This document shows positions 1-41,786 of a stretch of 64,000 bases of DNA, in pieces. The stretch is from Blasia pusilla. Its lineage: Eukaryota. Made by a program: the position numbers and the translations under genes. The stretch lies in the NCBI GenBank assembly GCA_050084515.1, contig CM114271.1:11346001-11410000 (forward strand), in the 5' to 3' direction. The notes beneath the pieces are model-generated. The model saw nothing but the letters and a program-made list of their open reading frames with translations, ran no database searches and was not told the DNA's origin. Within the stretch, counting starts at the first letter, position 1. Every line of letters begins with the position of its first letter.

Positions 1-869
1 ACTTAAAGGGGGCACCTATGGACGATTACCATCAGTTTTCCCAAAGATATGCCCATGAGATTGAAGATTGACTCTACTATGATCCACATTATGTGTAATG
101 GACGAATCCGTTTCTCGATGTGGAGGAGGAGTCAGGAGAGGCTTCTTCCTCTTCCATGAGTGATGTTTTAGGAGGAGTAACTCACAAAGGAGCAGTTGCA
201 TCGTCCAGTCGGGTTTGTCCCAGGTTCAACCCCGTGGTTTAGTTCTTTGCAGAGTTGAGGACGAGCTACTAGGGGGTACAGATTGAGAAGTTGCAAAACA
301 TCCACGACTTCCAAAGACGCATGGGTGAGAGTTTGTATGGGGCCTACACTCGCTTGCGCCGGTTGATTAACATCACTCAGGGGGATGACAGAGTCCCAGA
401 CTATCTAGTCATAGTACGCAATGTTGGACCGACTCCTGCGGACACGGGTGCGGGAGGGGTGCTTCTTATGAACACCTCACCTATGTTAAGAGATGTTTTT
501 AGGACCGCCGAGAATATTGAGTGCAAGATGGCAAAGGAGAGTGTAGCCACCATGGGTTCTAGGCAAAAGCAATCACGATTACCTATACCACCAGTGCAAG
601 AACGTGGATTCTGAGATAAGTCTGTGGCACCACGAGCTCAGGAAGGATATAGGGAGGCGTGCCATAGAGAACTACGTCTTCATATGTGGCTCAGCAGCAG
701 TCGCCTATGATTATTTGTCGGGCATGTGGTGGGGGCACAGCTTGTTGCTATCGTTATATGTGGAGCCACCGTAGAGTTGAATCCATAGAGAGGGGAAGCC
801 AGGAAACAGACCAGGCTTCCTCAGTCTTTCACGTTGTCTGAGGCGATGAGGACCCCATCGATGGGTCCT
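1..869 (+). mobile_element. gag-region fragment of DNMT/PHD Gypsy copy 2 (5' part; continues at 13294 after the nested copy 1)
   Basis: Homologous to the reverse complement of about 7250-8595 (ORF 291-614 'NIHDFQRRMGESLYGAYTRLRRLI' matches the copy-1 gag). Ends in gtcct at 865-869, repeated at 13294-13298, where the homology resumes. Confidence 0.85.
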
Positions 870-1638
870 TTCGTGCGCATACACATCGCTACATAACATA
901 CATCGCTGTCATTGAACACACACACAAATACACACGATCCCATGCTAACTCATGGCATCCATACATAGAGGCGAGACGTACCAAAATATCTCCAATTAAA
1001 GTTAGATCCAATCTCTCTCTACACTATCTCATACCATAGCTCTCAAAGGTGTCCACTCTCTCTCATGTCAAACCAAACCCACTCTCCTAATGAGAGGCTT
1101 GGATTACACTCACAAGACAAGGGACCATAACTCCGTTGCCTTATGCCAAGAGGTTCAACAAAGAGAGAATAAGCTCTCAAGCTCCCTCTCTTGGAGGTAT
1201 ACCCCCTTCCCTCTCCCAAGCCCTCTCAACCGTAACCTATGCTCGCACGTTACCTCCTTGGCTCTTGACTTGCTATAGCGGATCAAGGGCCACTTCCAAA
1301 AGTGGAAAGTGAACTATTCCCAATATGGAAACTTACCCGAAATAGTAAGTTTCTCTATATGGCTCCAAATGAGCCGAAACGAAGGGGAAACCTGCTCTCT
1401 TAGGTTTCTCTGGGCCTCTGCAAGTCATTCTCAATCTCCTAGGCATGTCCTCCACTACTCGTGAAAATGCTCTGCTAGATCCCAACGATCTATCCTAATA
1501 GTCATGACAGCTATCGTGCGCATACACATCGCTACACAACATACATCGCTATCATCGAACACACAAGAAACAATTACACACCATCCTATGCTAACTCATG
1601 GCATCCATACACAGAGGCGAGAAGTACCAAAATATCCA
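870..1638 (-). repeat. 3' terminal repeat block of copy 1: A (1512-1638), 11-bp spacer, B (about 995-1500), A (870-994)
   Basis: An approximately 125-bp direct repeat 'tcgtgcgcatacacatcgctac...ccaaaatatc' occurs at 871 and 1514. A G-run (PPT-like on the minus strand) lies at 1643-1648. Confidence 0.85.
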
Positions 1639-1826
1639 AGCGCCCCCCTAATTGGTGGTTAGGTCCCTCTAACTCTAGATAACCATCTATCCCTACCTAC
1701 CACGATATACATCTCTAGGACGCTAAGAGCAGAAAGGCCGGATGCTCATGTGGCCCCATCGTTAGTCACCTTTCCGTCATCCATATCACAGAAAAAGTTA
1801 GAATCAAAACCTACCTAGTATCTCCT

Positions 1827-1975
1827 CTATGTACATCTGGGACACATCCATCGTCCCTGAGGAACCCTAGTGAGAGGTGGCGTCAGACATGCCATATGCC
1901 AACCTCTCGAACTTCCATCACAGACTAGCATCATGGCCGCACCATGGGAAAAACCATACAACATACAACGCAAGC
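1827..1975 (-). pseudogene. PHD finger at the integrase C-terminus (copy 1)
   Basis: RCMLY...MLVCDGSSRGWHMACLTPPLTRVPQGRWMCPRC, a C4-H-C3 pattern; the two Cys missing here are present in copy 2. Confidence 0.88.
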
Positions 1976-3250
1976 GTGCAGGAACTACTGCTAAGCTTGG
2001 ATCTACTGTACCATCAATGTTAGGAAGGTGACATGGCGCACAATTACGCACATGCTCCTTCCATACCATACCATCGCATCCCTCCACCAGGAGAATACCG
2101 GATGGCAAAACGATACGCACTCTCAAGATAGTGCGCCCTGCAATCATATCCAACGTCGTCGGTGCAGTCTACTGCAAGTAGACATAATCTCCCTGATGAA
2201 ACCTCCGGATAGTTAGTCGATAACCACCACCCCGAATAGTCGCATACCTCAACGTATCCTGATGCTGCGCAATCGCCAAGTTCTCGAACGCCATGGGCAT
2301 CACTCTCCAAAACAACTCAGCCCTCTGGGTACATGCTCGCATCCATACATCTAGGTCATCAAGGTCCAATACCTCACCAACATCTCAACGAATGGCCGCA
2401 CGTAAATCTGGCTCTCGGCCATAAAGTAGCAAGTACACTGAAAAAGATGCTAAAGATGCCTGCCTGTTGAATCTGTATCCCATCGCGAACCATGGCAAGT
2501 GGAGGTCCCAATCTCCTAGGTGACCTCTATGCAAGCCATACTTGCATAAACCCCTCTTCACCGTCTGCACAACTCTCTCCGCTAATCCATCCGCCTCGGG
2601 ATGATCTTGCGAAGTCGTGCGGTGGTCGCTCAGCGCATGATTATACAAGGCCTAGAACTCACGGCGAAACTCAGTTCCCTAGTCTATGAACACCTCAGCG
2701 GGTGTGCCATAATGACTCAACACTCTGTCAAGGAAGGCATAAGCTACTCCCTCACTCGCTTTGTCAGGAAATGCAACTAACTTGATCCACTTCGAGAAGT
2801 ACTCAACCATCACCAACACATAACGACTGTGACGCTCCGTCAAAGGCAAAGGTCCTGCAAAATCCAAACTCATCTATACCCTAAGCCCATGATCGATAAT
2901 GGATGCAACTATGGAGTCGGAGCATTGAACGATGCTCGGACCTAATCACACACCACGCACTTGGCAACAAACTGCTGACGTGAGTCTGCATGCCTCGCCA
3001 CCAATACTGAAATCTGGAGCAAGCTGTACGTCCGCTTCATCCAAAAGTGACCCAACTCCTCGTGGGCATGTTGCACTAGTCGTGCTCTCTGCAAAGGATG
3101 TGGCACTACGCGTACTCTACCATCCTCCCAAACCCTCAAAACATGTGTCCCCTCCCAACGGAACCATCTGGCCCGCTGTAGGATCTGATCCCACTCTCTA
3201 GCACCCACGGTGCTCGCAAGGCTGCCACTACAAACGTACTCCAAGACTAC
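1976..3250 (-). pseudogene. DDE integrase with HHCC zinc-binding region (copy 1)
   Basis: HAHEELGHF...CVVC; SLDFAGPLP..YVLVMVEYFSKW; HPEADGLAERVVQTVK. Confidence 0.92.
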
Positions 3251-3459
3251 TCCATCATCATGAATATCTCAGCCACCTGTCGTCTCCTCACTGGCCTCGG
3301 GATCCAAGGACTCTCCACTAGACCTCGCCATCGAAGTCTCCACACTCTGGCTCTCCATAGTCAACATTCCTAAATAGGCTGATGCATGCCATCCTGGCAC
3401 TGACTATTCATCCCTCTCTCCATGCCATCGAGCTCTACTCACATCTCGCTGACTCGGGC

Positions 3460-4900
3460 ATGGGTTACGACTCAACCCGTCTGCATCTTGGTTGAGTGTC
3501 CTAGGTCTATGTACCACGTGAAAATCATACTCCTACAACAATAGAGCCCATCTCGCAAGCTTCCTTGTAAGCTTGTCAGACTCCATCAACCACTTTAGTG
3601 GTTGATGATCACTGATGATGGTAAAGGGGTTGCCAAATAAGTAACACCTGAAATGCGAGAAAACCCACACCGAATCCAAGCACTCACCCTCATAGGATTT
3701 TTACTTTGCCTCTACAGCGTTGTTTGAGCGGCTAGCGTAAGCCACCACGAACTCTCTACCCTCCTCATCATGCTAGGTGAGCACCGCTCCAAGCCCCAAC
3801 ATGCTCCAATCTAGGTGCATCTGGAAAGGACGCCCCCTGATCGGTCTCCTCAAGATGGGCGTAGACGTCAACTTGTCCTTGACCAACTGAAATGCTCCCT
3901 CCTGCTCATCCCCCCAGTGCCACTTGTGATCCATCTTGGTCAGCAAGGTCAGCGGCTTCGCAATCGAATTGAATCCCTTGACGTACCGCGGATAGAAGTT
4001 CGCCAATCCCATGAATGCGCAAACACAGCTCACATCTGTAGGGCGTGGAATATGTGAGATAGCCTCTACCTTTGTCTGCTAAACACCAAGGACCCCTGGG
4101 TATATCGTATGACCCAAATACTCAATCTAGTCGTAGAAGAACTTGCACTTGCCTGGATGTAGCTTCAGCCCATGTAATTGCAATCGTCGAAACACCTCCT
4201 CTAGATGTTGCTGATGCTCCTCAACCGTGGCGCTAAAGACTACAATGTCATCAATATAACACCTGGCAAAATCCAGACCACCCAAGATCCTATCCACGAC
4301 CATCTGAAACTCATATGGGGCGTTCTTTAACCCAAATGGTAAGAACCGCCACTGGTACAAAAAATCCTTCCCGTGAGGATTGATGCCCCAAAATGCCGTC
4401 TTCTTCCTATCCTCCAATCTGATAAGCAGTTGATGGTATCCGGCTTGCAAATCCAATGAACTAAAGACCTTTGCATGACCAATCGTATCAAAGATATCCT
4501 CAAAGGTGGGCATGGCATACCTATCCGACTTCGTCTGCCGATTGATAGGTCGGTAATCCCCACACATCCACGTATCCGTCCAGTTGCCATGCACATCCTT
4601 CTTGGTGGGCATGACAGTGGCAAATGCATACTCCCCATGCGACATCTCCACTAGTCCTGCTCCGACCTAGTCCTGGCTCCTATTCTGAATTAGAGCCCTC
4701 TCCATATCACTGTACCTGTAGGGTCGTTGGAAGATCGGCGTATCACTCCACAACTCAGTGTGGATCCCTGGTCCCTTCAACGTACCCAAATCCTCCATGC
4801 TAAACGCAAAGCAGCTCCTATAACTCTTGAGGAACTGATGTATCCGGTGCCGCTCTCCTCTTGTCAACTTAGGGCCCATATCTGGCTCCCAAGTCTCCAT
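3460..4900 (-). pseudogene. Reverse transcriptase and RNase H (copy 1)
   Basis: MCGDYRPIN, FSSLDLQAGYHQ, LPFGLKNAP, YIDDIVVFS, LHPGKC; FMGLANFY; LDWSMLGLGAVL. Confidence 0.95.
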
Positions 4901-5239
4901 CGTGACTACGGTAGGACTCTCCGGCGCGGGTATCGGTGGTTGCTATGGTGCAACCCCGTCTCGAACAACTACACTCGTCCGCTCTCTTGCAGCCAATTGA
5001 AAACTCTGATCTCCTCCAAGTGCAGTGCCCGGAACCACGCTCGATGTTATGGCTATCATCTCCTGGCGTTCCTGCAAAACATCCCAAGAAGTCCAAGGGT
5101 GTCTCTCCCTATCTTCCATGGTGTGTAGATCTCCTCGGGTCTCGCCCCCAACCACTGCCTCCACCGTCTCGGTAGGCATGGGGCTCACCAATGCAACCGT
5201 TGTGATCTGTCGCGATCTCATACGGCGTTGCTCAGCCAC

Positions 5240-6200
5240 TCCCAAGCTGAGGATCCATGTCAAGCAGTTCAGGTCCATCGCGTGACCCAAGACATGGCAT
5301 CGTGATGCCTCTGACACTGCCGTCACCCCTGTGGGAAATCCCATCGCTCACTCTCTCTCGTCGGCGTTGGGCTCCACCAAACGCTGAACCTGGTCATCCC
5401 AAACCAAGCCAGGACCGGCCTCCTTGTATGCATAGGAAGCGGGAAAACTCACAAACGTGGGAAAGGCTGCCCGCAGCCTGCCTACCCTCTTGACCATAAT
5501 CAACGATGGTCGATCATGTGCCTCATTGCCTCTGATCGACGACCTGGATCCAGAATGGAATCCACTAACAAATGGGAGGGGCGCTCCACTCTCGCATACG
5601 CCCTCCGTAACACCGCACGGGGCACCAAGTTGGTCCACCATAGACGCGGCCAATGGGCTCTAGAACCTACACTTGCCACATCCAAGAACACTACTAGGCT
5701 GATCTAGGCACACACTTGATGAGCACTCGTCATCACCCGTGACCTGGAGTCTCCTAAGGTCGGCACATTCTCCAGAATGTAGGCTGGAGAACGAGACTGG
5801 TGCTCCTGCAACTGCCGTAAGACCCTCAACATCTCCCAAAACAACCTAGACCGAGTGTCAGCCAACCCGCTGCCTCGTCTAGCATTTGATTGGCCCTGAC
5901 ATGGCCAACCGGGAATGACCAAATCAATGGTCCCTACCCGCTCTAAGTCCTGCGCCCCCAACAACGAAATATCCCTCGGTAGGGAACTCAGGTATCCCTG
6001 TACCGCGGACGGAGACAATAAGTGGGGAAAACATAGGCGTAACCGCGCCACATGTCATGGTGAGACGCGCCTCGCAACATCATCACTCTCCACATACAGG
6101 TACTGATGTACTCGCACTCTTGCTTGCAAAACAACAGCTAACCCAAATGCTAATCCCTCCAAAGAGATCTAACACTCGAATACCCTCCTTTGGGGTACAC
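5240..6200 (-). pseudogene. DNMT3-like C5-cytosine DNA methyltransferase domain inside pol (copy 1)
   Basis: Motif I IRVLDLFGG (about 6181-6155), motif IV IDLVIPGWPCQG (catalytic PC), motif VI YILENV, motif VIII-like GSRAHWPRLWWTNL, motifs IX/X EPNADERE.AMGFPTGVT...RCHVLGHAMD, all in canonical order. Confidence 0.92.
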
Positions 6201-6484
6201 CATATAATGGGTGTGGTATCCAAGGGTGTCATCGTAGCACTCCCTGATACCTCGGGTTTCTCACACCCGTCACGCTCCGGTGCAAACGCCTTGCTCCACG
6301 CAGTCTGCCCGTGCTCATTTTCCAATCGTCGAAGCTCCTCAGTCGAGCCCCACAGCGGCACCTTTCCTCCACGGGATGATGTGGCTGCCATAACACTTCT
6401 CTCCATAGAAATGTCAAGAACGGATAATGAGCTAAGGCGCTCATCACTTGACTGCCATCATGGTCTGTAGGACGTTGACTTCTC

Positions 6485-6817
6485 CTAGTAATCCAGGGAA
6501 AACCCCATCAGGTATAATACTGCTCCACCAACCAAGATGCCGTAGGACTCTCCATCAGTTACTATCGCCTTGGCTCGCGCCATGGACTCATAAGTAGGAT
6601 GTCCCGGGTGAATCCTCACCACGACCTCCTGTTGGATGATATAATGTGTGGCACTCGCTCCACCCAAGGATGTCTGTATCTGGAATGGAGAATGCTCCAC
6701 ATCGGCTCTTGTCAAGCCCAATCCTCTAAATGACGCTTTCCCCAACATCAAGGGTTGCGCTCCTGAATCCAACAAGATGCGCTGTGGACTAGAAGCTCTA
6801 TCTTCGGGACTCACCAA
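6485..6817 (-). pseudogene. Retroviral-type aspartic protease (copy 1)
   Basis: ILLDSGAQ active-site motif and downstream ILVGG. Confidence 0.85.
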
Positions 6818-8970
6818 CTAGAAGACCTCTCGGTTATCCAGAAACACAACACCAGGAGAATCTCGACACATGCCTCTCCTGATCATCAACAATAGGAGTT
6901 GTCGCACTCGTTTCTTCCATCGCCCTCCATGCTTGCATACCAACAACATCACCAAGGGCAGGCCCATCACCTCCTCTACAATCACCTCTGAACGTGATGC
7001 AAGAACTCCAACTCCACGCTCACATAGCGTAGCGGCCAGCCGAAAAGCCTTGGTGAGCGTACCCCCCAACGTCATAACATCCGATGTAGAAAATAAAGGA
7101 GCGCGGTACACAATGGTGGCCGCCCCCAACAACATGCTCGACACATGCCTCTCCTGAGCATCAACAATAGGAGTCGTCGCACTCCTTTCTTCCATTGCCC
7201 TCCGTGCTTGCATACCAACAACATCACCAACTCCTGAGGAACTTCGATCAAGACCCATCGATGGGGTCCTCATCGCCTTGCACAACGTGAAAGACAAAGG
7301 AAGCCTAGTCTGTTTCCTGGCTTCCCCTCGTTGTGGATCCAACTCTACGGCTACTCCATGCGTCACAACTGCGGCTACCTCCATCAAGGCAACCCCGCAC
7401 ATCCAACCAGGATCCTCCATATCTTTGGTTGCTCCATATGATGTTGATGCTACGGATCCGGCATCAGGTAATCTCAATGCCATAGCGTGAATCTGCTCTT
7501 GTATCTGAGCAGCCATCCTAGCCTCACGCCCGACATCTCCCTCGACGCATCGAGGTGGTAGGACTCTACCTCCTCCATGGGCAGCTCCACCACCGTGTCG
7601 GGCAACTCCAGCTACTCATCCCCCAATGGGACCACCTGGTGCACAATCTCTAGGCCCACCCCGACCGGCTACTTGCTCTGGTGCCCTCTCTGGCCCTCGG
7701 TCCGGATGTAACTTAAGATGTAAATTGAAACACCTGGCGCATGTATGACCATACCTTTGACAATAGTCACACTGATAACCTCTTGGTGCAGCACCATCTC
7801 CTCCTCCATGCTGAGGCACACGTCCATGACCCTGACGAGTGCAATCGCATTGATGATGGGCTCCACCATATGACCAACAAGTAATAGTAGGTGGTTGTTA
7901 TTGAGCCGTATATGAAGGCGCAGGTCTCTGTGGCACGGCCTCCCGGTATCCTCCTTGAGCTTGTGGTGCCACAGTCAACCTATCTCGGAGTTCACGTTGC
8001 TACACAGGTGGTGTAGACAATCGCGACAGCTCTTGCCCAGAACCCATGGTGGCTACGCTCTCCTCCGCCATGTTGCGCTCAATGTTCTTGGCGGTCCTAA
8101 AAACATCTCTCAACGTAGGGGAGGTATTCATAAGAAGCACCCCCTCCTGCACCAATGTCCGCAAGGTCTAGTCCAGCATCGCGTACCAGTATTGGATAGC
8201 ATGAGCCTCTATCACCCCCTGAGTGACGTTGATCAACCGGCACAAGCGAGTATAAGCCTCACACAAACTCTTACCGGGCGCCTCTAGAAGTTGTGGATGC
8301 TCCGCAACTTCTCCGTCCATACCCCTTGGTAGCTTGCCCTCAACTCAGCACAGAACTCAACCACAAGGTTGAACCTGGGACAAACCCGACTAGACGGTGC
8401 AACTGCTCTCGTGTGAGTGACCCCTCCTAAAACGTCACTAGTGGAAGAGGAAGTAGCCTCTCCTCACTCCTCCTCATCTGGAAATGGCTCTATCCATGAC
8501 ACATAATGTGGGTCATAGTAGAGCTTCCACGCCTCGATCTCACGTGCATATCTCTGAGAGAACTCATGGTAATTTTCCATGGGCGCCCCCTCTAAATGCT
8601 GGAACATACCATTCCATGCTGTAAATGGGTTGAACTCACTAGAGTCCGTGGCCCGCTGGGAGTCGCACCAACTCCTAAAGTCTGGTATGAAATCGTGCAA
8701 CTCAATCGTACCTACTGCATCTAAAAACCTACGCGGTCCTCTACCCAAGTCGTCCATCTCGTACGCCCAACTCGTAGGACCACTCACAATGTGTGGCAGT
8801 GTGCTCACAAACTCCTCTACATCCTCCTCCTCATTTGACGATGACACAGAAGGAGGTCGAGGTGGTCCCTCATGTGGAGACCCTAAGAACCTCGCGCCAC
8901 TCCGCGTAAAACCTCTAGAACTGCTCTGGGGTTCACCACCTTGACTCTCAAAGTCCCGAACGGACTCCAT
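6818..8970 (-). pseudogene. gag with CCHC zinc knuckle (copy 1)
   Basis: ORF 8464-8970 (FQHLEGAP..Y) and CDYCQRYGHTCARC at about 7730-7772; lies upstream of the protease. Confidence 0.78.
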
Positions 8971-10586
8971 GATGACCCTCGTGCCCCTCTCACTCGATCA
9001 CTCTCAACCCCACGAGTAATCCCTCAATCACTCATCCCAAACATGCGGCATTCGATCTACACTCTCCCTCCCCGAGACATGTAATGTGCGGCAACAAACA
9101 GCATGGTGCGGCAAATCGACCAAGCTATCATCTCATCGACAACCTACCCTCAACTCCGGAACATCCCACACAGGTCTATGTCCTCTAAACCACATACATA
9201 AGTGATGCTCTCAGCATCCACACAACCCAATATCCCCAAATAAACTTCCAAAATCCCACAATCCCTCACGCGTGTAGGGTAAAGGACCAGAATGGGTAAC
9301 CTGAACACATGTCGATGTCGCTCCTTAGCAATTGCAAATCTCAACCCCAACTTGGTCGTGGAGACAACTCCACCAATCAGCAAGCCATACTCCTCCCGCA
9401 CTGATGCCACTCAAAACTCCTCGAAAGATAGTGCGGTTCCAACGGAACGGTGGGGCGTTGCAGGCGGCACGGAACGGCTACGAACGACACGACCCTTGAT
9501 GGTGGGATGCGGCACTCGACGGCATACCCTCCTCAATCAACAATAAACCCACACTCTGCTCCACAATGATGGAGCGGCTCTGCGATCGAGACGGTGCAGT
9601 GTAGCCACGAGCGGCATGACGCAGCAATCGGCGGCGCGTTGCGGCTACGGGCGTCACGACACGGTACTCAATCTTTGTCGAGCGGCTACCAATCATAACA
9701 TAATAGCATGAAATCGAAACTCAAACACCATAAACGGAGGTCATCTTCCATCATTGGTTGATGACGAAACTGCGATAACGGTGGCGGCCAAAACAAAGTA
9801 CGTGGTGGCGACGCAAGTCAGAGAATCAACGAACGTCATAGAAGACCCTCCACTCCATAATGGCGGCAATGGCAACCAAAGGGTGGACCATTGAAGGTGA
9901 CGGTTGATGGTGACTATGATGGCGACGGCCGCCGCCGGCGTGGCGCCTGGTTTAGGGTTTGAACAATTTAACCCTAAAAATTGCCTAGCAATGGCAATTT
10001 TGCAAGATTGACCATAACTTTTTGCTCGCAACTCCAAATTGCGCATGGTTTATTCTACAGTGTGCACAACTTCACAATCTACGATAATATCAAAAATTTT
10101 TAGAATCAAACATTCCAGTAAAAACTGACAGGGATTTTTGTAAAGCCCAATGTCTCTTTCTCCTACACAAAATTTGGCAAGGCTTCCACGCTGATTTCTC
10201 CCAACGAAAATGTAAACCTGTAAAAATACAAATCAGCAAGCTACATGGTGCTCCCAAGAGCACTGGCATGGGGCAACCCGCTCCCATACTCAATCCCTAT
10301 CAAAAATTGGGCAGCGCTTCCCTGCGCCACTCTTCCACACGAAAAATCAGCAAGTGCAAAGAACAATCAAAGCAACCCTTGCTCCGGTGAGCACTCCTAT
10401 GAGCCACTGAATGGGACACAGTCCTCAACCTGAAAAAACAGCGAGCTGCCAGCAAGCTCCCCCATGAAGCTCTCTGACTCTCTCATTCTCTTGTGCGCCC
10501 CTCATAAGTGGCTCCCGTGTATGTTAGATACTTTTGGGACTCTAGTTAGGTGAGTAGAAGGAGCTAGAACAACAATCTGCAATTTA

Positions 10587-12707
10587 AATGGGATCATTGG
10601 TGCTATTTTGACCAAGATGGTGGCAACTCACAAATCAGATTGGGATAGGAAATTAGCTTCAGCTGTCCATGCTTACAACACAGCTGAGAAGAGTACAACA
10701 GGGAAAAGGCCCTACTTCTTGGTGTATGGGCAAAACCCTCTCTCGGTAGTAGAGTTGGAGTTGAAGACTCATCACACTCTAGAAGGGCACTTCCAACCTG
10801 AAGGTGGCATAGATAGCACGCTGGATATGATTGATGCCCTAGAGGAGGAAAGAAAGGCAGCATTGGAGAAGACCAAGGCGGTTCGGCAACAAAGGAAGAT
10901 GAGGTTTGATAACCGAATAAAGCATGATCCAGTGAAGGATGGGGACCTGGTGCTGATGTATGATAGTCGACACCAAAAGTTTTCAGGAAAGCTGCACATT
11001 CGACAGCTTGGGCCTTATCAGGTGGAGCTGAAGAGCATCCAAGGGAGTGATGAGAGCAGGTGGAGCTGAAGAGCATCCAAGGGAAGTGATGAGAGCAGGT
11101 GGAGCTGAAGAGCATCCAAGGGAGTGATGAGAGTAGGTGGAGCTGAAGAGCATCCAAGGGAAGTGATGAGAGCAGGTGGAGCTGAAGAGCATCCAAGGGA
11201 GTGATGAGAGCAGGTGGAGCTGAAGAGCATCCAAGGGAAGCTCGAACCAGCTTGAGAAGAAGCAAGCATGGGAAGAATGTAAAGGTAGGTCTTACCTTCA
11301 AGCATGTCCAAGAGACAAGTCGAGCCTATGCCATCAATGCTGCTCAAGAGACTTTAGTTAGGACAGGTTCAGAAGTAGATGAGGTAGAAATTTCATGCAG
11401 TAGATGCCTTGGAGTAGATGCTTAGGGGGAGGTAGATTTGTAGGAAGGTAGGAACCCTGAATGCCAGAGAAGCCCAAGTGGGAAGAGGGCTCTCAGCTTC
11501 ACTTATAAATACTCAGTTGGGTTTGCTTGAAGGGGGGCATATACATGTTGTTGGCTAGTAGACACTCAATCTCTTGAGCCAAGCTAACCAGCAGAGTTAT
11601 GTGCTCCCAGATCTAGGTAGTGTGTAGTGTGCTTGAAGGGGGCTGAGACTAAGAAGGTCTCCCATGTACTCGATGATTTTTTTGATACACAGAAGGTAGC
11701 CCTGTGAAATGAGTTCACTCCACTACCCTGTATCTGAGTTTGTGCATGATTGAGTGATGAGTTTGGGGGGTTGATGAAGTGAGATTCTTGGAGCTGATTC
11801 AACTAATCATTAAAAAGTGTAGTGAGTGGACAAGAGGCTATACCAGTAGAGGGGAGGCAAGCTTGGGTTCCAAGATTGTGCTCCACCAAGATGTGCTTGG
11901 AAAGCTTGCTGTTCTGCCCACCTGAGCTTGGCCTTTGACACCAATCATTGATTACTTCCTGGGTGTGACAACTTGGACTTCCAGGTCTGGTAAGTGATAA
12001 GAGTTAGTGAGTGGAGAGAGAGAGAGAGGGTCATGCTTGAGCTCCCCTATAGGTAGAAGACCATGGGCTCAGCCTATTAAGTCTCCTACTACCTGAACAA
12101 GAAGGGAGAACAAAGGATCAGCAAGGTAAGAGGAGAAGAAGAAGGGACGTGGGTGTTGGTTTGAGCAAATAGAGAGTTTCTTTCCTTTCAGGCTACCCTA
12201 GGGGTGGATGATTATACTAGACAGCGTATTGGATGGCCTTATGTTTTTTTTAGTAGTCTCTAGTTGTGAGCCTTGAGTATGTGTGCTGGTTGAATTCCCA
12301 CTGAGCACTCTATCTAAGGACTCAAAACTACACCCAAGCTCTCACTAGATACTCGGTGAGGAGAAAAAGGTGATTGCACTACCTGATCGGTTAGGAGTTG
12401 GGTGTGCTTTAGAGGATGTCCTTGGTACATTCAACTAGTCCAAGGCAGCACATTGGAGGACCTTATGCTGTCTGGTCATTCTTGACTGTGATTTCTAAGT
12501 AGAGTGTGCTTGTTGGGTTCCACTGGCCACTCCACTCAAAGCACTCAAGAGAAAGGAAGGAGTTTTGGTTAGTAGGGTGAGGACAGGATTGTGATATTGA
12601 AGTGGAGAGAGTTTCTCTAGCCTCTTAAGGTAAAGAGGTGGGGTTTACAGCTGTTAAGGAGTACATCTTGTAGATCTGATCTTTTGATCTGGCCCTAAGC
12701 TCTTACA
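10587..12707 (+). mobile_element. 3' fragment of an unrelated Gypsy element: integrase C-terminus, PPT and probable 3' LTR (about 11439-12707)
   Basis: NGIIGAILTKMV..DWDRKLASAVHAYNTAEKSTTGKRPYFLVYG...GDLVLMY..KL...GPY; purine tract 11424-11436 followed by tgtagg...cttaca. Confidence 0.75.
11019..11240 (+). repeat. Tandem repeat of alternating 38/39-bp units (about 5.8 copies)
   Basis: Unit caggtggagctgaagagcatccaaggga(a)gtgatgagag starts at 11019, 11057, 11096, 11134, 11173 and 11211. Confidence 0.95.
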
Positions 12708-12790
12708 TGGGACCGAACTGGTGGAACTAGCAACATTTTCTCCTGGGTTGTGTGCTGGCCATGTATTACCTGGTGAGACATCTCTCTTTG

Positions 12791-13293
12791 TAAAGTAAAA
12801 TCCAATCTCTCTCTACACCATCTCACACCATAGCTCTCAAAGGTGTGCACTCTCTCTCATGTCAAACCAAACCCACTCTCCTAATGAGAGGCTTGGGTTA
12901 CACTCACAAGGCAAGGGACCATAGCTCCGTTGCCTTATGCCAAGAGGTTCAACAAAGAGAGAATAAGCTCTCAAGCTCCCTCTCTTGGAGGTATACCCCC
13001 TTCCCTCTCCCAAGCCCTCTCAACGGTAATCTATGTTTGCAGGTCACCTCCTTGGCTCTTGACTTGCTGTAGCGGGTCAAGGGCCACTTCGCAAAGTGGA
13101 AAGTGAACTATCCCCAACATGGAAACTTAACCGAAATACTAAGTTTCTCTATATGGCTCCAAATGAGCGGAAATGAAGGGGAAACATGCTCTCCCAGGTT
13201 TCCCAGGCCTCAGCACGTCATTCTCGACCTCCTAGGCCTGTCCTCCACTACTCGTGAAGACGCTCTGGTAGATCCCACCGATCTATCCTAACA
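12791..13293 (-). repeat. 5' terminal repeat (B segment) of copy 1
   Basis: Near-identical to about 997-1500; ends ...gatctatcctaaca immediately before the TSD gtcct. Confidence 0.9.
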
Positions 13294-13653
13294 GTCCTGA
13301 TGAGAGTTTGCGGAGAGTTGATGTTGTTGGTGTGCAGACACGGAGGGCGATGGGAGAAGCGAGTGCGATGACTCCTAATGCTGATGCTCGGGAGGAGCAT
13401 GTGCCGAGTACGATGTTGGGGGCGGCCACGATGGTGTACCATGCTCTGTTGTTTTCTGCTTTCGATGTTATGATGTTGGGAGGTACGCCCGCCAAGGTTT
13501 TCTGGTTGGCCGCTATGCTATGTGAGCGTGGAGATGGAGTTCTTGCATCACGTTCAGAGGTGATTGCAAAGGAGGTGATGGGGATGCCCTTGGAGCTGAT
13601 GCTCGGGTTGTCCACCTCAGATTCATGGCAGGTTGCAGCTACTAGGATGGCGG

Positions 13654-14217
13654 AGAGGAGAGGAAGAGAGGAAGAGAGGAGAGAGGAAGATATTGGCAAC
13701 CCCTAGGGCTCTTTTGGTTTGAAGAGAGTTTCCGACAAGTTGAAGAGAGGAAAAATTTGACAAGTTGAAAAGGAAAAATTTTCCAAAAAAATTGGTGGTG
13801 AAAAAAATTTTGAATTTTTTTTTACCTTTTCAACTCGTCGGAATCCAATGGGTTGCAATTTATTTTTTATGGTTAAGGAAAAATTTTCATTTTTTTGGGT
13901 TTTTTTAACATTTGCAACCCGTCGGAGTCCAACCGGTTGCAAATGTTAAAAAAACCCAAAAAAATGAAAATTTTTCCTTAACCCACAAAAAAAAAAACCA
14001 AAAAATTGCATCCCATCGGATTCCGACAGGTTGCACTAAGTTTCCTCTCTTCAAAAAAAATCTCAAAAAAATTACTCACTTATTATCCATAATCTTCATA
14101 TTTTTTGAAGAGAGTTTCAGTTTTCTTTCCCTTTTGTGCCTTTTTTTTAAGAGAGGCTCTACTCTCTTCCTCTCTTCCTCTCCTCTCTTCCTCTCTCCTG
14201 CCAGAATACCAGCCCCT
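13654..14217. mobile_element. Foldback/MITE-like non-autonomous DNA transposon, possibly Mutator-like
   Basis: Long imperfect palindrome centred near 13928, with (GA)-rich and (TC)-rich ends. Flanked by the duplication ggatggcggaga at 13645-13656 and 14218-14229. Interrupts copy-2 gag. Confidence 0.75.
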
Positions 14218-15059
14218 GGATGGCGGAGATGCCCACTAGACCCACGATAGAGCATGCCATGGTTGCTCCAGGTGTTGTGTTGCTAGATAACCAAAGAGAG
14301 ATCTTTGAGTTGGTGAGTCCAGGAGGTAGATTGTTTTTTTCATAGCATGTCTTGTTAGATTCAGGAGTACAACCCCTGATGTTGGGGAAGGCGGCATTGA
14401 CGAGGTTGGGCCTAACGAGGGCCGATGTGGAGCGTTGTCCATTAAGAATACATACATCCTTGGGTGGAGCGAGTACCACATACTTTATCACCCGCCATGA
14501 GGTCGTGGTGAGGATTTGCCTAGGACATCCTACAGATGAGTCCGTGGTACGAGCCAAGCCAATCGTGATCGATGCACAGTCCTACGACGTCTTGGTTGGT
14601 GGAGGAGTGTTGTACCCGATGGGATTTTCCTTGGATTACTAGGAGGAGTCAGCGTCCTACAGACCAAGATGGTAGTTTGGCGATGGGCGAATTAGCTCAT
14701 TACCTGTTTGATTCACGAGTGGAGTGATCGAGCGATGGCCAAGAGAGATGGCAACTTTAGGAGCATTTAGCAGCGCCATCACGTGACCTTCTGATTTGAT
14801 TGAGGGGCATGTCCGTAGAGGACATCTCGCGCCTGACACTTCTAGGGAGAGGAGTGTTATGGTAGCCGCATCATTCTGTGGAGGAGAGGTGCCGCCGTGG
14901 GGCTCAAGTGAAGATCTCTGACGTTTATCTGATGAGCACGTGTAGACGGCTTGGACTGAGGCGTTTGCACTAGAGCGTTCCGGGTCAAAGGGACTCGAGG
15001 TAGCCGTAAGTGCTACTATGATCCCTTTCGACATCACCCCGATTGTGTGGTGCATTCCA

Positions 15060-16030
15060 GAGGAGGGTATTTGCGTGTTGGATCTCTTTGGAGATATGAG
15101 CACTGGCTTAGCTGCTGTTTTGTAGGCAGGAGTGCGTGTACAGAAGAACTTCTACTACTGCTGTACGTGAGATTGATGATGTTGCAATGCGCGCTTCACT
15201 TCACATGTAGCGCACTTACACCTCCGATTTCCTGACTTATTGTCTACGTCCGCCATCTAGGGATACAAGAGTTCCCTACCGAGGGACATTTCATTGTTGG
15301 GGGCGTAGGACTTGGAGCGGGTACGGACCATAGATTTGGTCATTGCTAGTTGACCATGTCAGGGTCAATCGAGTGTTGGACAAGGTAGCGGGTTGGTTGA
15401 CACTCGATCAGGTTGTTTTGGGAGATGAAGCGGATCTTGCGACACTTGCAAGAGCATCAGTCTCGTTCTCCAGCATACATTATGGAGAATATTCTGATTT
15501 TGGGCGATTTGAGGTCTTGCATGATGACAGTGCACATCAAGTGCACGCATGGATTGGCCCGACAATGTTGTTGGATGCGGAGAGTGTAGGTTCACAAGCA
15601 CATCGCCCACGTCTTTGGTGGACCAACTTGATGCCACATGAGATTTTGCAAAGGGCGTACGCGAGAGTGGATCGCCCCTCCCATTTGTTGGTGGATTCTA
15701 TTCTAGATCTAGGTCGTCGGTCACAGGCAGTACGACACGATGATCGACCTCCGTTGATTATGGTCAATAGGATTGGCATGCCATGAGCAGCCTTTCCCAC
15801 ATTGGTGAGTTTTCCCTCTCCCTATGCATTGAAGGAGGGCGGACCTGGTTTGGTTTGGGATGCAAAGTACAGCGGTTGGTGGAGCCTAACGCCACCAACC
15901 ACATGGGATTTCCCACAATAGTGACAGAAGTATCGTCACTATCAGAGGCATTACGACGACATGTCCTGGGTCAGGCGATGGACTGCTTAACATGGATTTT
16001 CAGCTTAGGAATAGCTGAGCAACGTCGTTT
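15060..16030 (+). pseudogene. DNMT3-like methyltransferase domain (copy 2)
   Basis: ICVLDLFGD; IDLVIAS*PCQG (about 15330-15365); YIMENI; GSQAHRPRLWWTNL; LVEPNA..MGFP...RRHVLGQAMD. Confidence 0.9.
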
Positions 16031-16629
16031 GAGGTTGCGACACATTATAATTATTGTGTTGGTGAGCCCCATGCCTATCAAAACCGTTGAGGCACTGGCT
16101 AGGGGCGAGACCCGAGGAGATTGACACACTAGGGATGATCGAGAGAAACACCCCTAGACTTCTTGGGATGTTTTGCAAGTACGCTAGGAGATGCTAGCCA
16201 CAACATCGAGCATGGTTTGGTTTGGCATGCACGTGGAGATCAGAGTTTGCAGTTGGCTATAGGGGAGCAATCGAGTTTTGTTGTCTGAGACAGGGTTACA
16301 CCATAGCAAACACCATGGTTGGAGTAGGACTAGTGGAGATGTCGCATGGAGAGTATGCATCTGCCACTATCATGCTTGCCAAGAAGGATGCGCATGGTAA
16401 CTGGACGGATACGCGGATGTGTGGAGATTACCAACCTATCAATCGGCATACGAAGTCCAATAGATATGCCATGCCTACCCTTGAGGAGATGTTTAATGCT
16501 ATTGGGCATGCAAAGGTCTTTAGTTTGTTAGATCTTCAAGCCGGAGGCCATTAGTTGCCTATCAGATAGGAGGATAGGCAGAAAACGATATTTTGGGGCA
16601 TCGATCCTCATGGGAAGGATTGCTTGTAC

Positions 16630-19077
<2,448 letters not shown>

Positions 19078-21459
19078 GCTTGTATGAGTGGTGGTTCTTA
19101 CCATTTGGGTTAAAGAATGCGCGGCTGAGTTTCAGAGGGTCATGGATAGAATCGTGGTAGGTCTCGATTTTGCTAGGTGTTATATTGATGACATCGTAGT
19201 CTTTAGCGCCATGGTTGAGGAGCATGAGCCACATCTAGAGGAGTTGTTTTGACGATGGCAGTTATATGGGCTGAAGCTACATCGAGGCAAGTGCAAGTTC
19301 TTCTACGACTAGATTGAGTACCTAGGTCATACCATATACCCAAGTGGCCTTGGTGTGGAGCAGAATAAGGTAGAGGCTATTTCATGCATTCCACGCGCTA
19401 CACATGTGAGTCGAGTTCGTGCATTCATGGGATTGGAAAACTTCTATCGACGTCAAGGTTTTCACTTCAATTGCGAAGCCGCTAACTTTGCTGACCAAGG
19501 TGGATCAGGAGTGGCATTGGGGGGATGAGCAGGAGAGAGCATTTCAGTTGCTCAAGGACACATTGACATCTGCGCCCATATTGAGGAGACCGATCAAGGG
19601 GCGTCCTTTCCAATTGCATATCGATTGGAGCATGTTGGGACTTGGAGCCGTGCTCATCCAACATGACGATGATGGTAGAGAGTTCGTGGTGGCTTACGCT
19701 AGTTGCTCAAAAAACATTGCAGAGGCAAAGTATAACTTGTATGAGGGTGAGTGCTTGGCTGCAATGTGGGTTGTTGCACATTTCAGGTGTTATCTATTTG
19801 GCAACCCCTTTACCATTATTATTGATGATCAGCCACTTAAGTGGTTGATGGAGTCCGACAAGCTTATAGGAAAGCTTGCAAGGTGGGCTCTTTTGTTGCC
19901 GGAGTATGACTTCTAGGTGGTGCATAGACCTGGGATGCTCAACCAGGATCTAGATGGTTTGAGCCGTAACCCATGTTCGAGTTAGCGAGATGCGACTGGA
20001 GCTCATTGGCATGGAGAGAGTGATGAGGAGTTGGTGCTAGGATGGCACACGTTAGGCTATTTGGGCTTGTTGGCTATAAAGAATCAAATTCTTGAGACTT
20101 CGATGGCGAGGTCTTATGAAGAGTCCTTAGATCTAGAGGCCGGTGAGGAGACAAGAGGTGGCCGAGATATTCACGACGATGGATTAGTCTTGGAGTACCT
20201 GCGTACTAGCAGCGTCGCGAACACAATGGGTACTAAAGAGCGGGATCGGATCCTACAACAAGCCAAACGGTTCCGGTGGGAGAGGACCCATGTGTTGCAA
20301 GTTTGGGAGGATGGTAGAGTATGTGTATTGCCTCATCCTTCATAGAGAGCACGTTTGGTATGTCATGCCCAAGAGGAGTTGGGTCATTTTGGAGTGAAGC
20401 GGACGTACATCTAGCTTGCTCCAGATACAATATTGGTGGCAAGGCATGCATACTGACATTCAGTAGTTTGTTGCCAGATGCATGATGTGTGATTGGGTCT
20501 AGGCATCGTTCAATGCTTTGACTCCACAATTACATCCACTTTCGATCATGGACTTAGGTTATAGATGGAGTTTGGATTTTGCCAGACCTTTACGTTTGAC
20601 ACAGCACCATAGTCGTTATGTGTTGGTGATGGTCGAGCACTTCTCAAAGTGGATAGAGTTTGTTACATTGCCTGACAAAGCCAATGAGGGAGTAGCGTAT
20701 GCCTTCCTAGATCGAGTCATTACAGCGCACCAACTGAGGTGTTGATAGACGAGGGTACAGAGTTTTGTCGGGAGTTTCAAGCCTTGTATGATCAGGCGCT
20801 GATCGACCACCGCACCACTTTGTGAGATCATCATGAGATGGATGGACTAGTGAAGAGGATTGTGCAAACAGTGAATAGAGGATTACGCATGTATGCCTTG
20901 GAGAGAGGTCATTTAGGAGATTGGGACCTCCAATTTCCGAGGTTGGCGATGGGATACAGATACAGCAAGCAGAAATCCTTAGCGTCTTTCTCACTGTTCT
21001 TGCTACTTTATGGTCGAGAGCCGGATTTACCTGTGGCCATTCGTCGAGATGTTGTTGAAGTGATGAACCTTGATGACCTTGATGTATGGATGCGATCATG
21101 TTCATAGAGGGCTGAGTTGTTTAGGAGAGTGATGCCCATGGTGTTTGAGAACTTGGCGATTGCGCAACATTGAGATACGTTGAGGTATACGACTATTTGG
21201 GAAGGTGATTATCGACCTACTATCCGTAGGTTTCATCAGGGATAATATATCTCCTTGCAAGAGATGGAACCTATGAAGTTGGATATGACTGTAGGGCGCA
21301 CTATCTTGAGAGTGCGTGAGGTTTTGCCATCTGGTGTTCTCTTATTGGAGGGATGCGATGGTATGGCTTGGAAGGACCATGTGCGTAACTATGCGTCAAG
21401 TCACCTTCCTAACATTGATGGTACAATAAATCCGAGCTTAGTAGTAGTTCTTGCAGGCT

Positions 21460-21605
21460 TGCAATGTATGTTGTGTGGTTATGCCTGTGGTGCAGCCACT
21501 ATGCTAGTCTGTGATGGATGTTTGAGAGGATGGCATATGGCATGTTTGACGCCACCTCTCACTAGGGTTCATTGGGGATAAGGGATGTGTCCTAGATGTA
21601 CATAG
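21460..21605 (+). pseudogene. PHD finger at the integrase C-terminus (copy 2)
   Basis: CMLC...MLVCDGCLRGWHMACLTPPLTRV, then MCPRC after a frameshift. Confidence 0.88.
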
Positions 21606-21786
21606 AGTAGGTAGTTCTAGATTCCAACTTGTGTCTCTAATATGGATGACAAGAAGGCGAAAAATGATGGTGCCACAAGAGCACCCAACCTTTTTGCTCT
21701 TAACGTCCGAGAGATGTATGTCATAGTAGGTAGGGATAGATGGCTATCTGGAGTTAGAGAGATCTAACCACCAACTAGGGGGCGAT

Positions 21787-22551
21787 TGGAGATATTTTGG
21801 TACTGCTCGTCTTGTTGTGTGTATTCCATGAGTTAGCATGGGATTGCGTATGTTTGTGTGTATGTTCGATGACTGCGATGGATATTGTGTAACGATGTGT
21901 ATGCGCACGACAACTATCACGTCTTTAAGGATAGATCGGCGAGATCTAGTAGAGCATCTTTGGAGATACTGGAGGATATCTTCAAGAGGTCAAGGATGAC
22001 ATGCTAAGGCCATAGGTAGCATACGAGAGCAAGTTTTCCTTTTGGTTCGGCTCATTTGGAGCCATATTGAGGAACTTACTATTTTAGGTAAGTTATTGTT
22101 TTTGGTATAGTTGAATTTTCACTTTGGGAAGTGGCCCTTGTTTTGCTACAGCAAGTCAAGAGCCAAGGAGGTGACTTGCAAGCATAGGTTACCGTGGAGA
22201 GGGCTTGGGAGGAGGAAGGGGGTATACCTCCAAGAGAGAGAGCTTGCGAACTCATTCTCTCTTTGTTGAACCTCTTGGCATGAGACGGCGGACCTATGGT
22301 CCTCCTTACCTTGTGTGTGTAATCCAAGCCTCTGATTAGTAGAGTGGGTTTGGTTTGACATGAGAGAGACTGCACACCATGGAGAGCTTGGTGTGAGATG
22401 TTGATGCGAGATTTCATTGATTTATTGGAGATATTTTAGTACTTCTCGTCTCGTTGTGTGTATTCCATGAGTTAGCATAGGATCGTGTTTATTTGTGTGT
22501 AGGTTTGATGACAATGATGTATGTTATGTAGCAATGTGTATGTGCACGATA
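21787..22551 (+). repeat. 3' terminal repeat block of copy 2: A (21787-21912), 11-bp spacer, B (21924-22425), A (22426-22551)
   Basis: tggagatatttt...gcacgaca/ta occurs twice; B is homologous to 995-1500; G-run taggggg at about 21776-21782. Confidence 0.88.
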
Positions 22552-22579: not shown

Positions 22580-23930
22580 CTAACATCTCCTCTATGCGTA
22601 GTACCCTGAATTACGCTGGATGTTATGGCTACCAACTCCTGATGTACCTGCAAAACATCCCAACAAGTCCAAGGGTGTCTCTCTCGATGACCATTAATAT
22701 GTTGATCTCCTTGGATCTTTCCCCTAGTCATTGCCTAAACCGTATCGGTAGGCATGGGGCTCATCAACGCAATAGATATGACGTGTCGCAACCTCATCCG
22801 ACGGTGCTCAGCTACTCCTAAGCTGATGATCAATGTCAAGCAATTCAGATCCATCGCCTAACCCAAGACATGATGTCGATGCCACTAATAGTCATAGTAT
22901 TGTTATCACTCTTGTGGGAATTCCCATTTCCGGCTCTTGCTCATCGGTGTTGGGCTCCACCAATCGATAAGCCTTGTCATCCCAGACCAAGCAAGGACTG
23001 ACCTCCTTGTGTGCATAGGAAGTGGGAAAACTCAAAAAAGTGGGAAAGGCTGCTCGTGACATGCGAATCCTATTGACCACAATAAATGATGCTCATGTGC
23101 TCATGAACCTATACTCGCTGCATCCAAAAATATTGTTGGGTCGATCCATGCATCCACCTGATGTGCACTTGTCACCACCCATGACCTTGAGTTGCCCAAG
23201 ATCAATACATTCTTTTAAGATGTACTTTGGGGAATGAGGTTGATGTTCCGACAAATGTTGCAAGATCCTCATCATCTCCCCAAACAATATGGAATGAGTA
23301 TCAGCTAACTTGCTACCTTGTCCAACACTCAAGTGGCCTTGACATGACCAACCAGCAATGAACAAATTCATGGTCCCTACCCGCTCCAAGTCCTACGCCC
23401 CCATAAAAGAACTGTCCCTTGGTAGCGACCTGTGGTGCCTCCTATACGGATGACATAGACAACAAGTTTCATTGGGAAAATGGAGGCATAACTATAGTAA
23501 ATGTTGAAGTGAGATGCGCCTCAAAATCTCATCAAGCTCCACATACAAGCACTGGCGCATACGCATCCCTACCTACAAAACAACAACCAACCCAATTATG
23601 ATCCCTCTAAGAAATCCAATACCTGAATAGCCCCCCCTCTAGGATGCCCCACACAATTGGTGTGGTGTCAAAGGGTGTCATTGTAGCACTCCCGGCTACC
23701 TTGGGTTCCTATGACCCATCATGCTCTAGTGCAAACATCTCACTCCACACTATCTCCACATGCTCATCGGCCAAGCGTCGGAGCTCCTCACTCGAGCCCC
23801 ACACAGGAACTTCTCCTCAAGGGAATGATGCGGCTACCATAACACTCCTTTCCGTAGAAGGTGCTAGACAGAGATGTGTGCCTTGCATGGACATGCTCCT
23901 CAATCAGATGTGGTCTCATGAGGGGACCAC
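22580..23930 (-). mobile_element. DNMT/PHD Gypsy copy 3: fragment with the DNMT3-like domain and flanking linkers
   Basis: Collinear with about 5010-6430: ERVGTMNLFIAGWSCQG, YILKE, LVEPNTDEQEPEMGIP. Confidence 0.85.
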
Positions 23931-29644: not shown

Positions 29645-30387
29645 ATAGCCCCTCATGCCATACAGTGTCGTATGCCTTCTTGAGATCCAAGAAGAAGCAA
29701 TAGGTGTGTTTTCCCTCTTTTTTCCTACCCTAGATAATCTGACTGAAGGTGAAGATGTGATTCATCCATCCTCGGGCTTGTCGGAAGCTATCATGGCCTT
29801 CCTTGATGAAGCAATTCTCCTCTAGGTACAAGGAGATCCTGTTGTTGAGTATAAGGTAGAGAAGCCTTGAGAGAAGCTTCCCAACTACACTCAACAATGT
29901 AATACCCCTATAGTTTCCAAGGTCTTCTCGTTCACCCTTCTTAAAGAGGTTCACCATGACTCCCACCTGCCACCTTTGTGGAATGACTTCTGCTCACCAA
30001 ACCAGGTTGAAGAGACTCACTAGCTAACGAGCCACAGCAGTGTCGACATATTTCAATCACTCATTCACAAGTTCACCACCACTGCCTACTTTGTGGTTCA
30101 CAAGTTCTTTCATCGTTGCTCCCACCTCAGCTAGGGAGAACCAATCATTATATGGGTTGCCTAATTCAACCTTATCATCTACCTTCTCCCGTTGTATCTT
30201 AAAAAAATCCTCAAAGTTCAAAGTTCTGCTCTTCAAGGGATGTCTGAGGGGGTTTCCTACGTAAGTCCTTGTAATGGTCTTCCAACACATGTCCGATCTG
30301 TTTAGCAGTGGTCGCCATCCCACCGTCTATTCTCTTCAGGGCCTTTACGTCATTTTTGTCCCTGGCCTTGCTCAATTTCTACACTTC
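29645..30387 (-). mobile_element. LINE (APE-type, RTE/CR1-like) RT N-terminal fragment
   Basis: VNLFKKGEREDLGNYRGITLLSVVGKL, FRQARG..NHIFT, and FLDLKKAYDTVW at about 29700-29657. Confidence 0.88.
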
Positions 30388-31925: not shown

Positions 31926-31942
31926 TGGCACCATGCCGGGGA
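31926..31942 (+). promoter_or_regulatory. Primer-binding site, tRNA-Asp type (degenerate)
   Basis: tggcaccatgccgggga versus the Athila-type TGGCGCCGTTGCCGGGGA. Confidence 0.75.
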
Positions 31943-39682: not shown

Positions 39683-39687
39683 ACCAA

Positions 39688-41720: not shown

Positions 41721-41721
41721 A

Positions 41722-41724
<3 letters not shown>

Positions 41725-41786
<62 letters not shown>
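41725..41786. repeat. (GA)n microsatellite
   Basis: Pure GA run. Confidence 0.98.

Follow-up and report, generated by a model that had tools for sequence, protein, structure and literature searches.

The 64,000-nucleotide stretch of Blasia pusilla DNA analyzed here (the window) contained two Ty3/Gypsy-type elements, Y and X, and a fragment of a third insertion, Z, with Y lying inside X. A C5 cytosine methyltransferase (DNMT) domain, classified as Dnmt3 type, was present in all three of the insertions covering the corresponding region (Y, X, and Z), and every one of these copies was a pseudogene. The best explanation, which we hold with good confidence, is that they are decayed streptophyte Gypsy-DNMT3 elements of an autonomous type, with a single frame of the order gag(CCHC)-PR-DNMT-RT-RNaseH-IN-PHD; the identity part of this explanation is regarded as practically certain.

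The arrangement of the copies was worked out by self-comparison and by reading of the junctions (Table 1). Since X was colinear on either side of Y, Y was placed within the gag of X. The assignment to the Ty3/Gypsy type followed from the CCHC gag, the protease (PR), the reverse transcriptase (RT), the RNase H (RH), and the DDE integrase (IN). The integrase of Y showed 47% identity to residues 1971-2181 of protein P0033 in tblastn, and the Ty3 Gag-Pol integrase was among the PDB matches of the integrase ORF of a relative. No Pfam match was obtained with the gag fragment of Y. The preliminary description of this DNA had counted three copies. The second and third methyltransferase domains were indeed found at the coordinates given there, but the second copy and the RT-IN part of the third turned out to be one element, X, and the third domain belonged to the fragment Z. 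That description had also overlooked the strand and the nesting, as well as the PHD finger and the split direct repeats.

Table 1. Features of elements Y and X and of fragment Z (positions are those of the window)
Feature	Position	Strand	Basis or remark
Element Y, near full-length Gypsy-DNMT3, nested in gag of X	868..13300	-	X colinear on either side
Y 5' long repeat (first unit of A-coding-B-A-B)	12791..13300	-	510 bp; 92% identity to 997-1507, direct orientation
Y leader, enlarged by foreign sequence	9000..12790	-	Distance from 5' repeat to gag ~4 kb vs ~1.15 kb in relatives
Integrase-like ORF inside Y leader	10554-11069	+	Reading by eye; no Pfam match
Tandem repeats inside Y leader	11019-11240		
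Y gag	7616..8770	-	tblastn, P0173 residues 9-900 onto 8742->6122
CX2CX4HX4C zinc knuckle in Y gag	~7730-7771	-	Read from translation
Y aspartic protease (LLDSGAQ)	6464..6817	-	gag-asp_proteas E 0.0099, under cut-off; tblastn, P0033 residues 803-907
Y Dnmt3-type C5 cytosine methyltransferase domain	5078..6244	-	PF00145; tblastn, P0173 residues 860-1243; pseudogene
Y reverse transcriptase	4127..4852	-	RVT_1 E 3.5e-29; tblastn, P0033
Y RNase H	3533..4078	-	RT_RNaseH_2 E 2.2e-10
Y integrase (H2C2 zinc domain and DDE core)	2232..3268	-	Integrase_H2C2 E 6e-6; rve E 1.3e-4, under cut-off
Y C-terminal PHD finger	1833..1940	-	PF00628 E 8.8e-8, 32.5 bits vs cut-off 24
Y 3' split direct repeats	868..1636	-	Short 1511-1636, long 997-1507, short 868-990
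X piece 1: gag; 5' end beyond window start	3..867	+	80-88% identical to Y 8595->7252
X piece 2: gag end, PR, DNMT (15012-16172), RT start	13301..16630	+	13301/13319-16630 matches Y 7226->4354
Foreign 2.45-kb insertion splitting X RT	16631..19079	.	G-rich inverted ends; TTGTAC / TTGTAT flanks; junctions vs uninterrupted Y
X piece 3: RT, RNase H, IN, PHD (within 21246-21581), repeats	19080..22549	+	82% identical to Y 4360->871; Pfam RT_RNaseH 4e-30, rve 2.5e-5, PHD 3.7e-6
X short-long-short 3' repeats	21785-21910, 21916-22411, 22424-22549	+	
Fragment Z, DNMT-only remnant of a third insertion, adjoining X 3' end	22585..23909	-	DNMT 22654-23605

The element appears to end in split direct repeats, arranged long ... 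short-long-short, in place of plain LTRs. In Y, the long unit preceding the coding region was repeated behind it between two short units, which were 90% identical to one another. This A-coding-B-A-B layout is presumably that of the split direct repeats of Ngaro/PAT-type elements. When 19 loci outside the window were inspected, the full layout was observed in three of them (L007, L033, and L023), the long unit measuring ~337 bp and the short one ~115 bp; three others (L001, L017, and L015) had the long pair only, and the remaining 13, many of them too short in flank, had neither pattern. An "A-coding region-B-A" layout is described for DNMT-bearing DIRS elements, and said to hold also for the Gypsy element of Klebsormidium, in the available text of PMC5890265. 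Comparison of the ends of Y gave no clear target-site duplication at this divergence.

The copies in the window were 78-83% identical in pairwise comparisons. Their CpG observed/expected ratio was 0.47-0.70, vs 0.92 in the PHO1 gene region, and TG/CA was in excess; the CpG depletion and the TG/CA excess are consistent with a prolonged exposure to host methylation. The contribution of the window itself is one of dead copies only.

The methyltransferase domain and its type

The preliminary description had placed a methyltransferase at 5240-6200. The domain was present there, but it proved to be slightly wider (~6244->5078) and to lie on the minus strand. The Pfam model PF00145 matched 5704-6054(-) with an E-value of 2.4e-11 and 44.1 bits (cut-off 22); the remaining three of the four DNMT fragments gave no Pfam match, and the PF00145 cut-off was passed by six of seven named or intact relatives. 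In tblastn, the Y domain was 58-63% identical to protein P0173 (Marchantia polymorpha Mp_4g09160, 1278 aa) with an E-value of 4e-115, a match far beyond chance. Furthermore, residues 9-1243 of this protein were colinear with 8742->5078 of the window, a stretch spanning gag through DNMT.

The motifs read from the Y translations were LDLFGGIS (I), GWPCQG (IV), ENV (VI), RLWWTNL (VIII), and MGFPTGVT...VLGHAMD (IX/X), in the unpermuted order I-IV-VI-VIII-IX-X. Motifs I, IV, and VI were kept in Y and motif VIII had lost its first Arg; motifs IV and VI were changed in X and Z. One frame was common to the protease ORF of Y and the N-terminus of its DNMT, and the C-terminus of the DNMT was in the same frame as the RT, the two frameshifts within the domain cancelling each other. 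When compared with an intact Marchantia relative, the Y domain contained two frame changes and three stops. Three frame changes and ~10 stops were counted in the X domain (15012-16172, +), and three frame changes and six stops in the Z domain (23605->22654, -). Hence, the in-frame, unpermuted Dnmt3-type domain between PR and RT proposed in the preliminary description was borne out by Pfam, tblastn, and the frames together. Lack of a PF00145 match, or a frame differing from that of PR and RT, had been named there as grounds for abandoning the proposal; a match of 44.1 bits was found and the domain was in frame. The same description had called all the copies pseudogenes, in agreement with the frame changes and stops in the DNMTs of Y, X, and Z.

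The enzyme type was approached through the sequence and the fold of relatives. Among the PDB sequences, 25 of the 27 matches of P0173 were DNMT3A, DNMT3B, or DNMT3C (best E-value 1.7e-8); the other two were the HaeIII methylase and 4onj, listed as "DNA methyltransferase" (E-value 2.6e-3), which we take to be a tobacco DRM. An enzyme of the DRM type was rejected, given the unpermuted motif order and the E-value of 2.6e-3 for 4onj vs 1.7e-8 for DNMT3A. L001:12587-13780, an intact relative, was modeled with AlphaFold from a 34-sequence alignment (mean pLDDT 86.7). With this model, the Foldseek matches listed were DNMT3A/B/C throughout, with a best E-value of 2.2e-19 and TM-scores of 0.79-0.86, target-normalized and for chains of the methyltransferase domain alone. 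The modeled domain was ~60 residues longer than the catalytic domain of DNMT3A. Neither PWWP nor ADD was detected on the proteins of the element. By sequence, predicted fold, and motif order, the domain is thus closest to the Dnmt3 type; placement in the Dnmt3 clade by a tree comes from PMC5890265, for the algal relative.

Across 34 aligned domains, no variation occurred in the catalytic Cys of PCQ, the ENV Glu, or the motif VIII Arg and Asn. Additionally, dN/dS was estimated from three intact sequences, with a dS (~1.5) near saturation; the values of 0.19 and 0.21 between sublineages point to purifying selection at that level, and 0.86 was obtained for a near-identical pair.

Relatives in bryophytes and two domain orders

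The Y DNMT, read through over 185 residues, served as the query of an exhaustive HMMER search, which retrieved 1259 proteins at E<=1e-3; of these, 294 reached E<=1e-10, and polyproteins of 1000-3200 aa were numerous among the relatives. Gene models of Marchantia polymorpha accounted for 15 of 55 matches; five of the 15 had Mp_ identifiers, on chromosomes 2, 4, 6, and 8 as judged from the gene names, and the other, MARPO-named models may be the same loci as named in an older assembly. Further named relatives came from Calypogeia fissa, Sphagnum fallax, and Sphagnum troendelagicum, and the nearest named relative of the window DNMT was that of Calypogeia (65-66% identity). A search with the PHO1 exon of the window gave just two matches, both of them Marchantia proteins with 50% identity, in line with a liverwort-like bryophyte as host. 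Four Marchantia models had one ORF comprising the DNMT together with the RT or at least its start, and three of the four also contained the protease.

Metagenome contigs were also scanned, which yielded 110 loci coding for relatives (80 retained). Because the scan relied on peptide patterns within the DNMT or beside it, the share of the family without a DNMT is not derivable from its result. The DNMT domain was uninterrupted in only three of the 77 metagenome loci with a DNMT match, and no single ORF from gag to IN occurred among the metagenome loci of at least 9 kb.

The DNMT-bearing Gypsy family is abundant in land plants and common in bryophytes, namely liverworts and mosses. The rarity in land plants that the preliminary description had implied was therefore not upheld. 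Its view of the domain as a heritable feature of the family was confirmed: the domain was inherited in the insertions of the window (three of three), in the Marchantia models whose single ORF contains PR-DNMT-RT, and in numerous metagenome loci. Klebsormidium was absent by name from the protein searches and from the cluster look-ups (30 proteins), the latter giving only the names Calypogeia and Scenedesmus, beside unnamed metagenome records; the protein atlas gave generic PF00145 clusters only. Searches of the full text of the literature found neither a bryophyte DNMT-bearing Gypsy element nor any of four Marchantia gene identifiers, and the supplementary DNMT3 trees of PMC5890265 and PMC12344493 may include such sequences. 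Three things are new with respect to the searched text: the range of land-plant hosts, a model species among them; the presence of a PHD finger; and the division into two architectures.

These two architectures emerged from 225 proteins with a DNMT match, in which the domain orders were PR-DNMT-RT(-RH-IN) and RT-RH-DNMT-IN-PHD (class II). In a FastTree analysis of 143 domains, all 64 rows with the order RT-RH-DNMT-IN-PHD fell into one clade with a local support of 99, and all 35 classifiable PR-DNMT-RT rows were placed outside it. The window copy belonged to a clade of 22 rows with those of Marchantia, Calypogeia, and Sphagnum (local support 100). A quick IQ-TREE search with 66 rows, from which one long branch and Marchantia rows that were near-identical had been removed and in which class II was represented by 24 of its 64 rows, gave the same picture, with class II forming one side of a branch (SH-aLRT 98). 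In these unrooted DNMT trees of the window copy and retrieved relatives, the groups track the two domain orders. Since a PHD finger followed the integrase in both architecture classes, descent of the two orders from a common ancestor is suggested.

Possible action of the enzyme

Cytosine methylation is the main weapon of the host against transposons, and a transposon with a de novo methyltransferase of its own is a paradox. In the searched text, the Gypsy-borne form had previously been documented for one charophyte alga only. Its occurrence in bryophytes moves the question to a tractable land plant, as methylomes, mutants, and transformation exist for Marchantia, and brings in a linked PHD reader.

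By analogy with the elements described in the available text of PMC5890265, the methyltransferase of live copies would be made within Gag-Pol and would travel with the replication complex. The enzyme would methylate either fresh cDNA or the copy just inserted, most likely at CG, and the PHD finger of the integrase may steer integration to a particular histone state, so that new copies would arrive already bearing the silent-chromatin mark of the host. This mechanism of cDNA methylation, drawn from analogy, is offered tentatively and with somewhat less than even credence. In the preliminary description, too, cleavage from the polyprotein, packaging, and methylation of the cDNA or of host chromatin are predicted steps.

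The target of the enzyme could also be host chromatin, at the integration site or in trans, with the PHD finger and the DNMT forming a module that reads and writes silent chromatin. The inheritance of the PHD finger together with the DNMT in both architecture classes speaks for such a module, as does the insertion of the family into itself, Y in X and X against Z; this nesting, however, may just reflect heterochromatin rich in transposable elements, since other such elements were nested here too. The closest solved relatives of the PHD finger, which include those of PHF21A, KDM5A/B, CHD4, UHRF1/2, ATXR5, and AIRE, point in the same direction. Most such PHD fingers read unmodified H3K4 or H3R2, but for the element a histone specificity of this kind would be taken over by analogy. 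On balance, an action on host chromatin seems somewhat unlikely. It is quite improbable that the domain is a non-catalytic module, acting either as a binder of DNA or chromatin or, like DNMT3L, as a partner by which host DNMT3 is recruited or blocked. For this reading there is the single activity test published for the algal relative, which had a negative outcome that its authors call inconclusive in the available text of PMC5890265; against it stand the invariant Cys, ENV Glu, and motif VIII Arg and Asn across the 34 domains of both classes, the retained cofactor motif I, and the purifying selection estimated between sublineages. Methylation of RNA, such as the genomic RNA of the element, is an idea raised for LINE-borne DNMTs (PMC5890265, in part), but it is very improbable for a domain whose sequence and predicted fold are nearest to those of the DNA enzymes DNMT3A/B/C. 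Finally, a host DNMT3 pseudogene lying by chance among transposon fragments, or a one-off capture, was rejected as practically excluded, given the same position and frame in three insertions, the colinear gag-PR-DNMT protein of Marchantia, the 110 loci, and a tree that tracks the architecture.

A wider proposal, speculative and in our judgment unlikely, would see in Gypsy-DNMT3 an old group of the green lineage that has persisted in liverworts and mosses, with two DNMT positions tracking two clades. Its PHD finger and DNMT would constitute a self-contained module for reading and writing silent chromatin, which would steer copies into silent DNA, including older copies of the family, and pre-methylate them; the nested pile in the window would be a trace of this process. 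With its near-identical gene models, Marchantia polymorpha would be a genetic model plant in which to put this proposal to the test.

Comparison with known systems

The elements of the window are of the streptophyte Gypsy-DNMT3 kind represented by KnitGypsy-Dnmt3 of Klebsormidium nitens, a kinship drawn from shared architecture and not from a tree, in which the position of the DNMT in the pol of Klebsormidium may or may not correspond to PR-DNMT-RT. According to the available text of PMC5890265, the two have in common an unpermuted Dnmt3-type domain in a Gypsy pol ORF without introns, DIRS-like A-coding-B-A(-B) repeats, conserved key residues, and host copies that are methylated or silent; the Ka/Ks given there is <0.2, vs ~0.2 between sublineages here. 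Expression of the KnitGypsy-Dnmt3 domain in yeast gave no methylation, a result that the authors call inconclusive in the same text. One difference lies in the host, which here is a land plant, the closest relatives being found in liverworts and mosses. The DNMT-bearing retrotransposons of de Mendoza et al. (2018), which the preliminary description had cited, correspond to those of PMC5890265, as far as its available text goes.

SymbioDIRS-Dnmt3 of Symbiodinium likewise has a Dnmt3-type domain in pol and A-coding-B-A repeats, and its de novo CG methylation was demonstrated in yeast (PMC5890265, available text). It differs by its tyrosine recombinase and DIRS backbone, whereas a DDE integrase and the Gypsy order were found here, and by its dinoflagellate host; in the portion of PMC5890265 at hand, the authors hold its capture to have been independent.

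Host DNMT3A/3B/3C gave the best sequence and fold matches and have the same motif order, but PWWP and ADD were not detected on the proteins of the element; from DRM, the element differs by its unpermuted order. Chromoviruses are not known to carry a methyltransferase and possess ordinary LTRs. They resemble the present elements in that a histone reader, presumably for targeting, is fused to the integrase C-terminus (PMC6673714, available text), although the reader is a chromodomain there and a PHD finger here. In the EpiLTRs/DAM-LTRs, as presented in the available text of bioRxiv 10.64898/2026.05.21.726589, LTR elements also combine DNA methyltransferase domains with a chromatin reader; however, theirs comprise an adenine methyltransferase plus a cytosine enzyme related to DNMT4 at the 3' end of pol, and their acquisition is stated to be distinct from that of the streptophyte Gypsy-DNMT3.

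The group itself is named in that preprint as "streptophytes (Gypsy-DNMT3)", and retrotransposon-embedded DNMT3s are mentioned "as previously reported in streptophytes" in the accessible part of PMC12344493. As the family is common in bryophytes, the Blasia window represents one more host of a known kind of element and not the first.

Nested insertions of the DNMT-bearing family

Three insertions of a single family, all bearing a Dnmt3-type methyltransferase (DNMT), were found piled up and nested in 3-23909: the decayed Gypsy-type retroelements X and Y, and the DNMT-only fragment Z. This arrangement may reflect a preference of the family for its own copies as insertion sites; alternatively, the region may simply be a TE-rich island. 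The insertion that splits the reverse transcriptase of X looks like a non-autonomous DNA transposon, since its inverted ends are G-rich and its flanks read TTGTAC and TTGTAT; it also contains a long simple repeat (17443-17691) matching 41720-41786.

Additionally, a plus-strand ORF of 171 aa was observed within 10554-11325, inside the enlarged leader of Y. Judged by eye, it resembles the terminal portion of an integrase of the Gypsy type, and no match for it was obtained in Pfam.

Features of the analyzed stretch
Feature	Position	Strand	Remarks
Y	868-13300	minus	Host site, gag of X
PHD finger, Y	1833-1940		After integrase
Tandem repeats	11019-11240		Period ~77 bp; adjoin 171-aa ORF in Y leader
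2.45-kb insertion	16631-19079		Interrupts reverse transcriptase of X
PHD finger, X	within 21246-21581		After integrase
X 3' end	22549		Adjoins fragment Z at 22585
RT, RNase H and integrase, second Gypsy element	35221-37611	plus	
Extra open ORF, second Gypsy element	38057-39682		541 aa
PHO1-like gene	57310-62543	plus	
SPX exons, PHO1-like gene	57310-57690, 58397-58777	plus	
EXS exon (probable), PHO1-like gene	62244-62543	plus	Read by eye

A second Gypsy element and the PHO1-like gene

Another Gypsy element, unrelated to the DNMT-bearing family and lacking a DNMT, was observed on the plus strand (29978-40102). Its boundaries seem to be formed by direct repeats of 415 bp (29978-30387 and 39688-40102), which share 84% identity. 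No convincing Pfam family was found for the extra ORF of this element, to which an ORF fragment at 24406-24912 is related.

The PHO1-like gene gave just two database matches, both of them Marchantia polymorpha proteins with 50% identity. Its CpG observed/expected ratio was 0.92, whereas the values for the DNMT-bearing copies were between 0.47 and 0.70. Elsewhere, the region 46000-52000 presented a very low GC content (0.31-0.32), a low CpG ratio (0.42) and no ORF of at least 110 aa.

DNMT placement and PHD fingers in relatives

A sister group of DNMT domains (class II), in which the DNMT is placed between RNase H and integrase (RT-RH-DNMT-IN-PHD), was found outside the window. Its members are P0013, P0055, P0022 and 60+ other proteins, none from the window, and one of them is annotated as "pol" in the green alga Scenedesmus sp. 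When 24 of the 64 class II rows were sampled for the reduced IQ-TREE set, these rows formed one side of a branch with an SH-aLRT value of 98.

In most of the class II proteins, and in an outside relative encoded by a metagenome locus (L007:15857-16978), a PHD finger is located after the integrase, as in X and Y. The solved PHD fingers closest to that of the elements are those of KMT2C/D, CHD4, KDM5A/B, PHF21A, ATXR5 and UHRF1/2.
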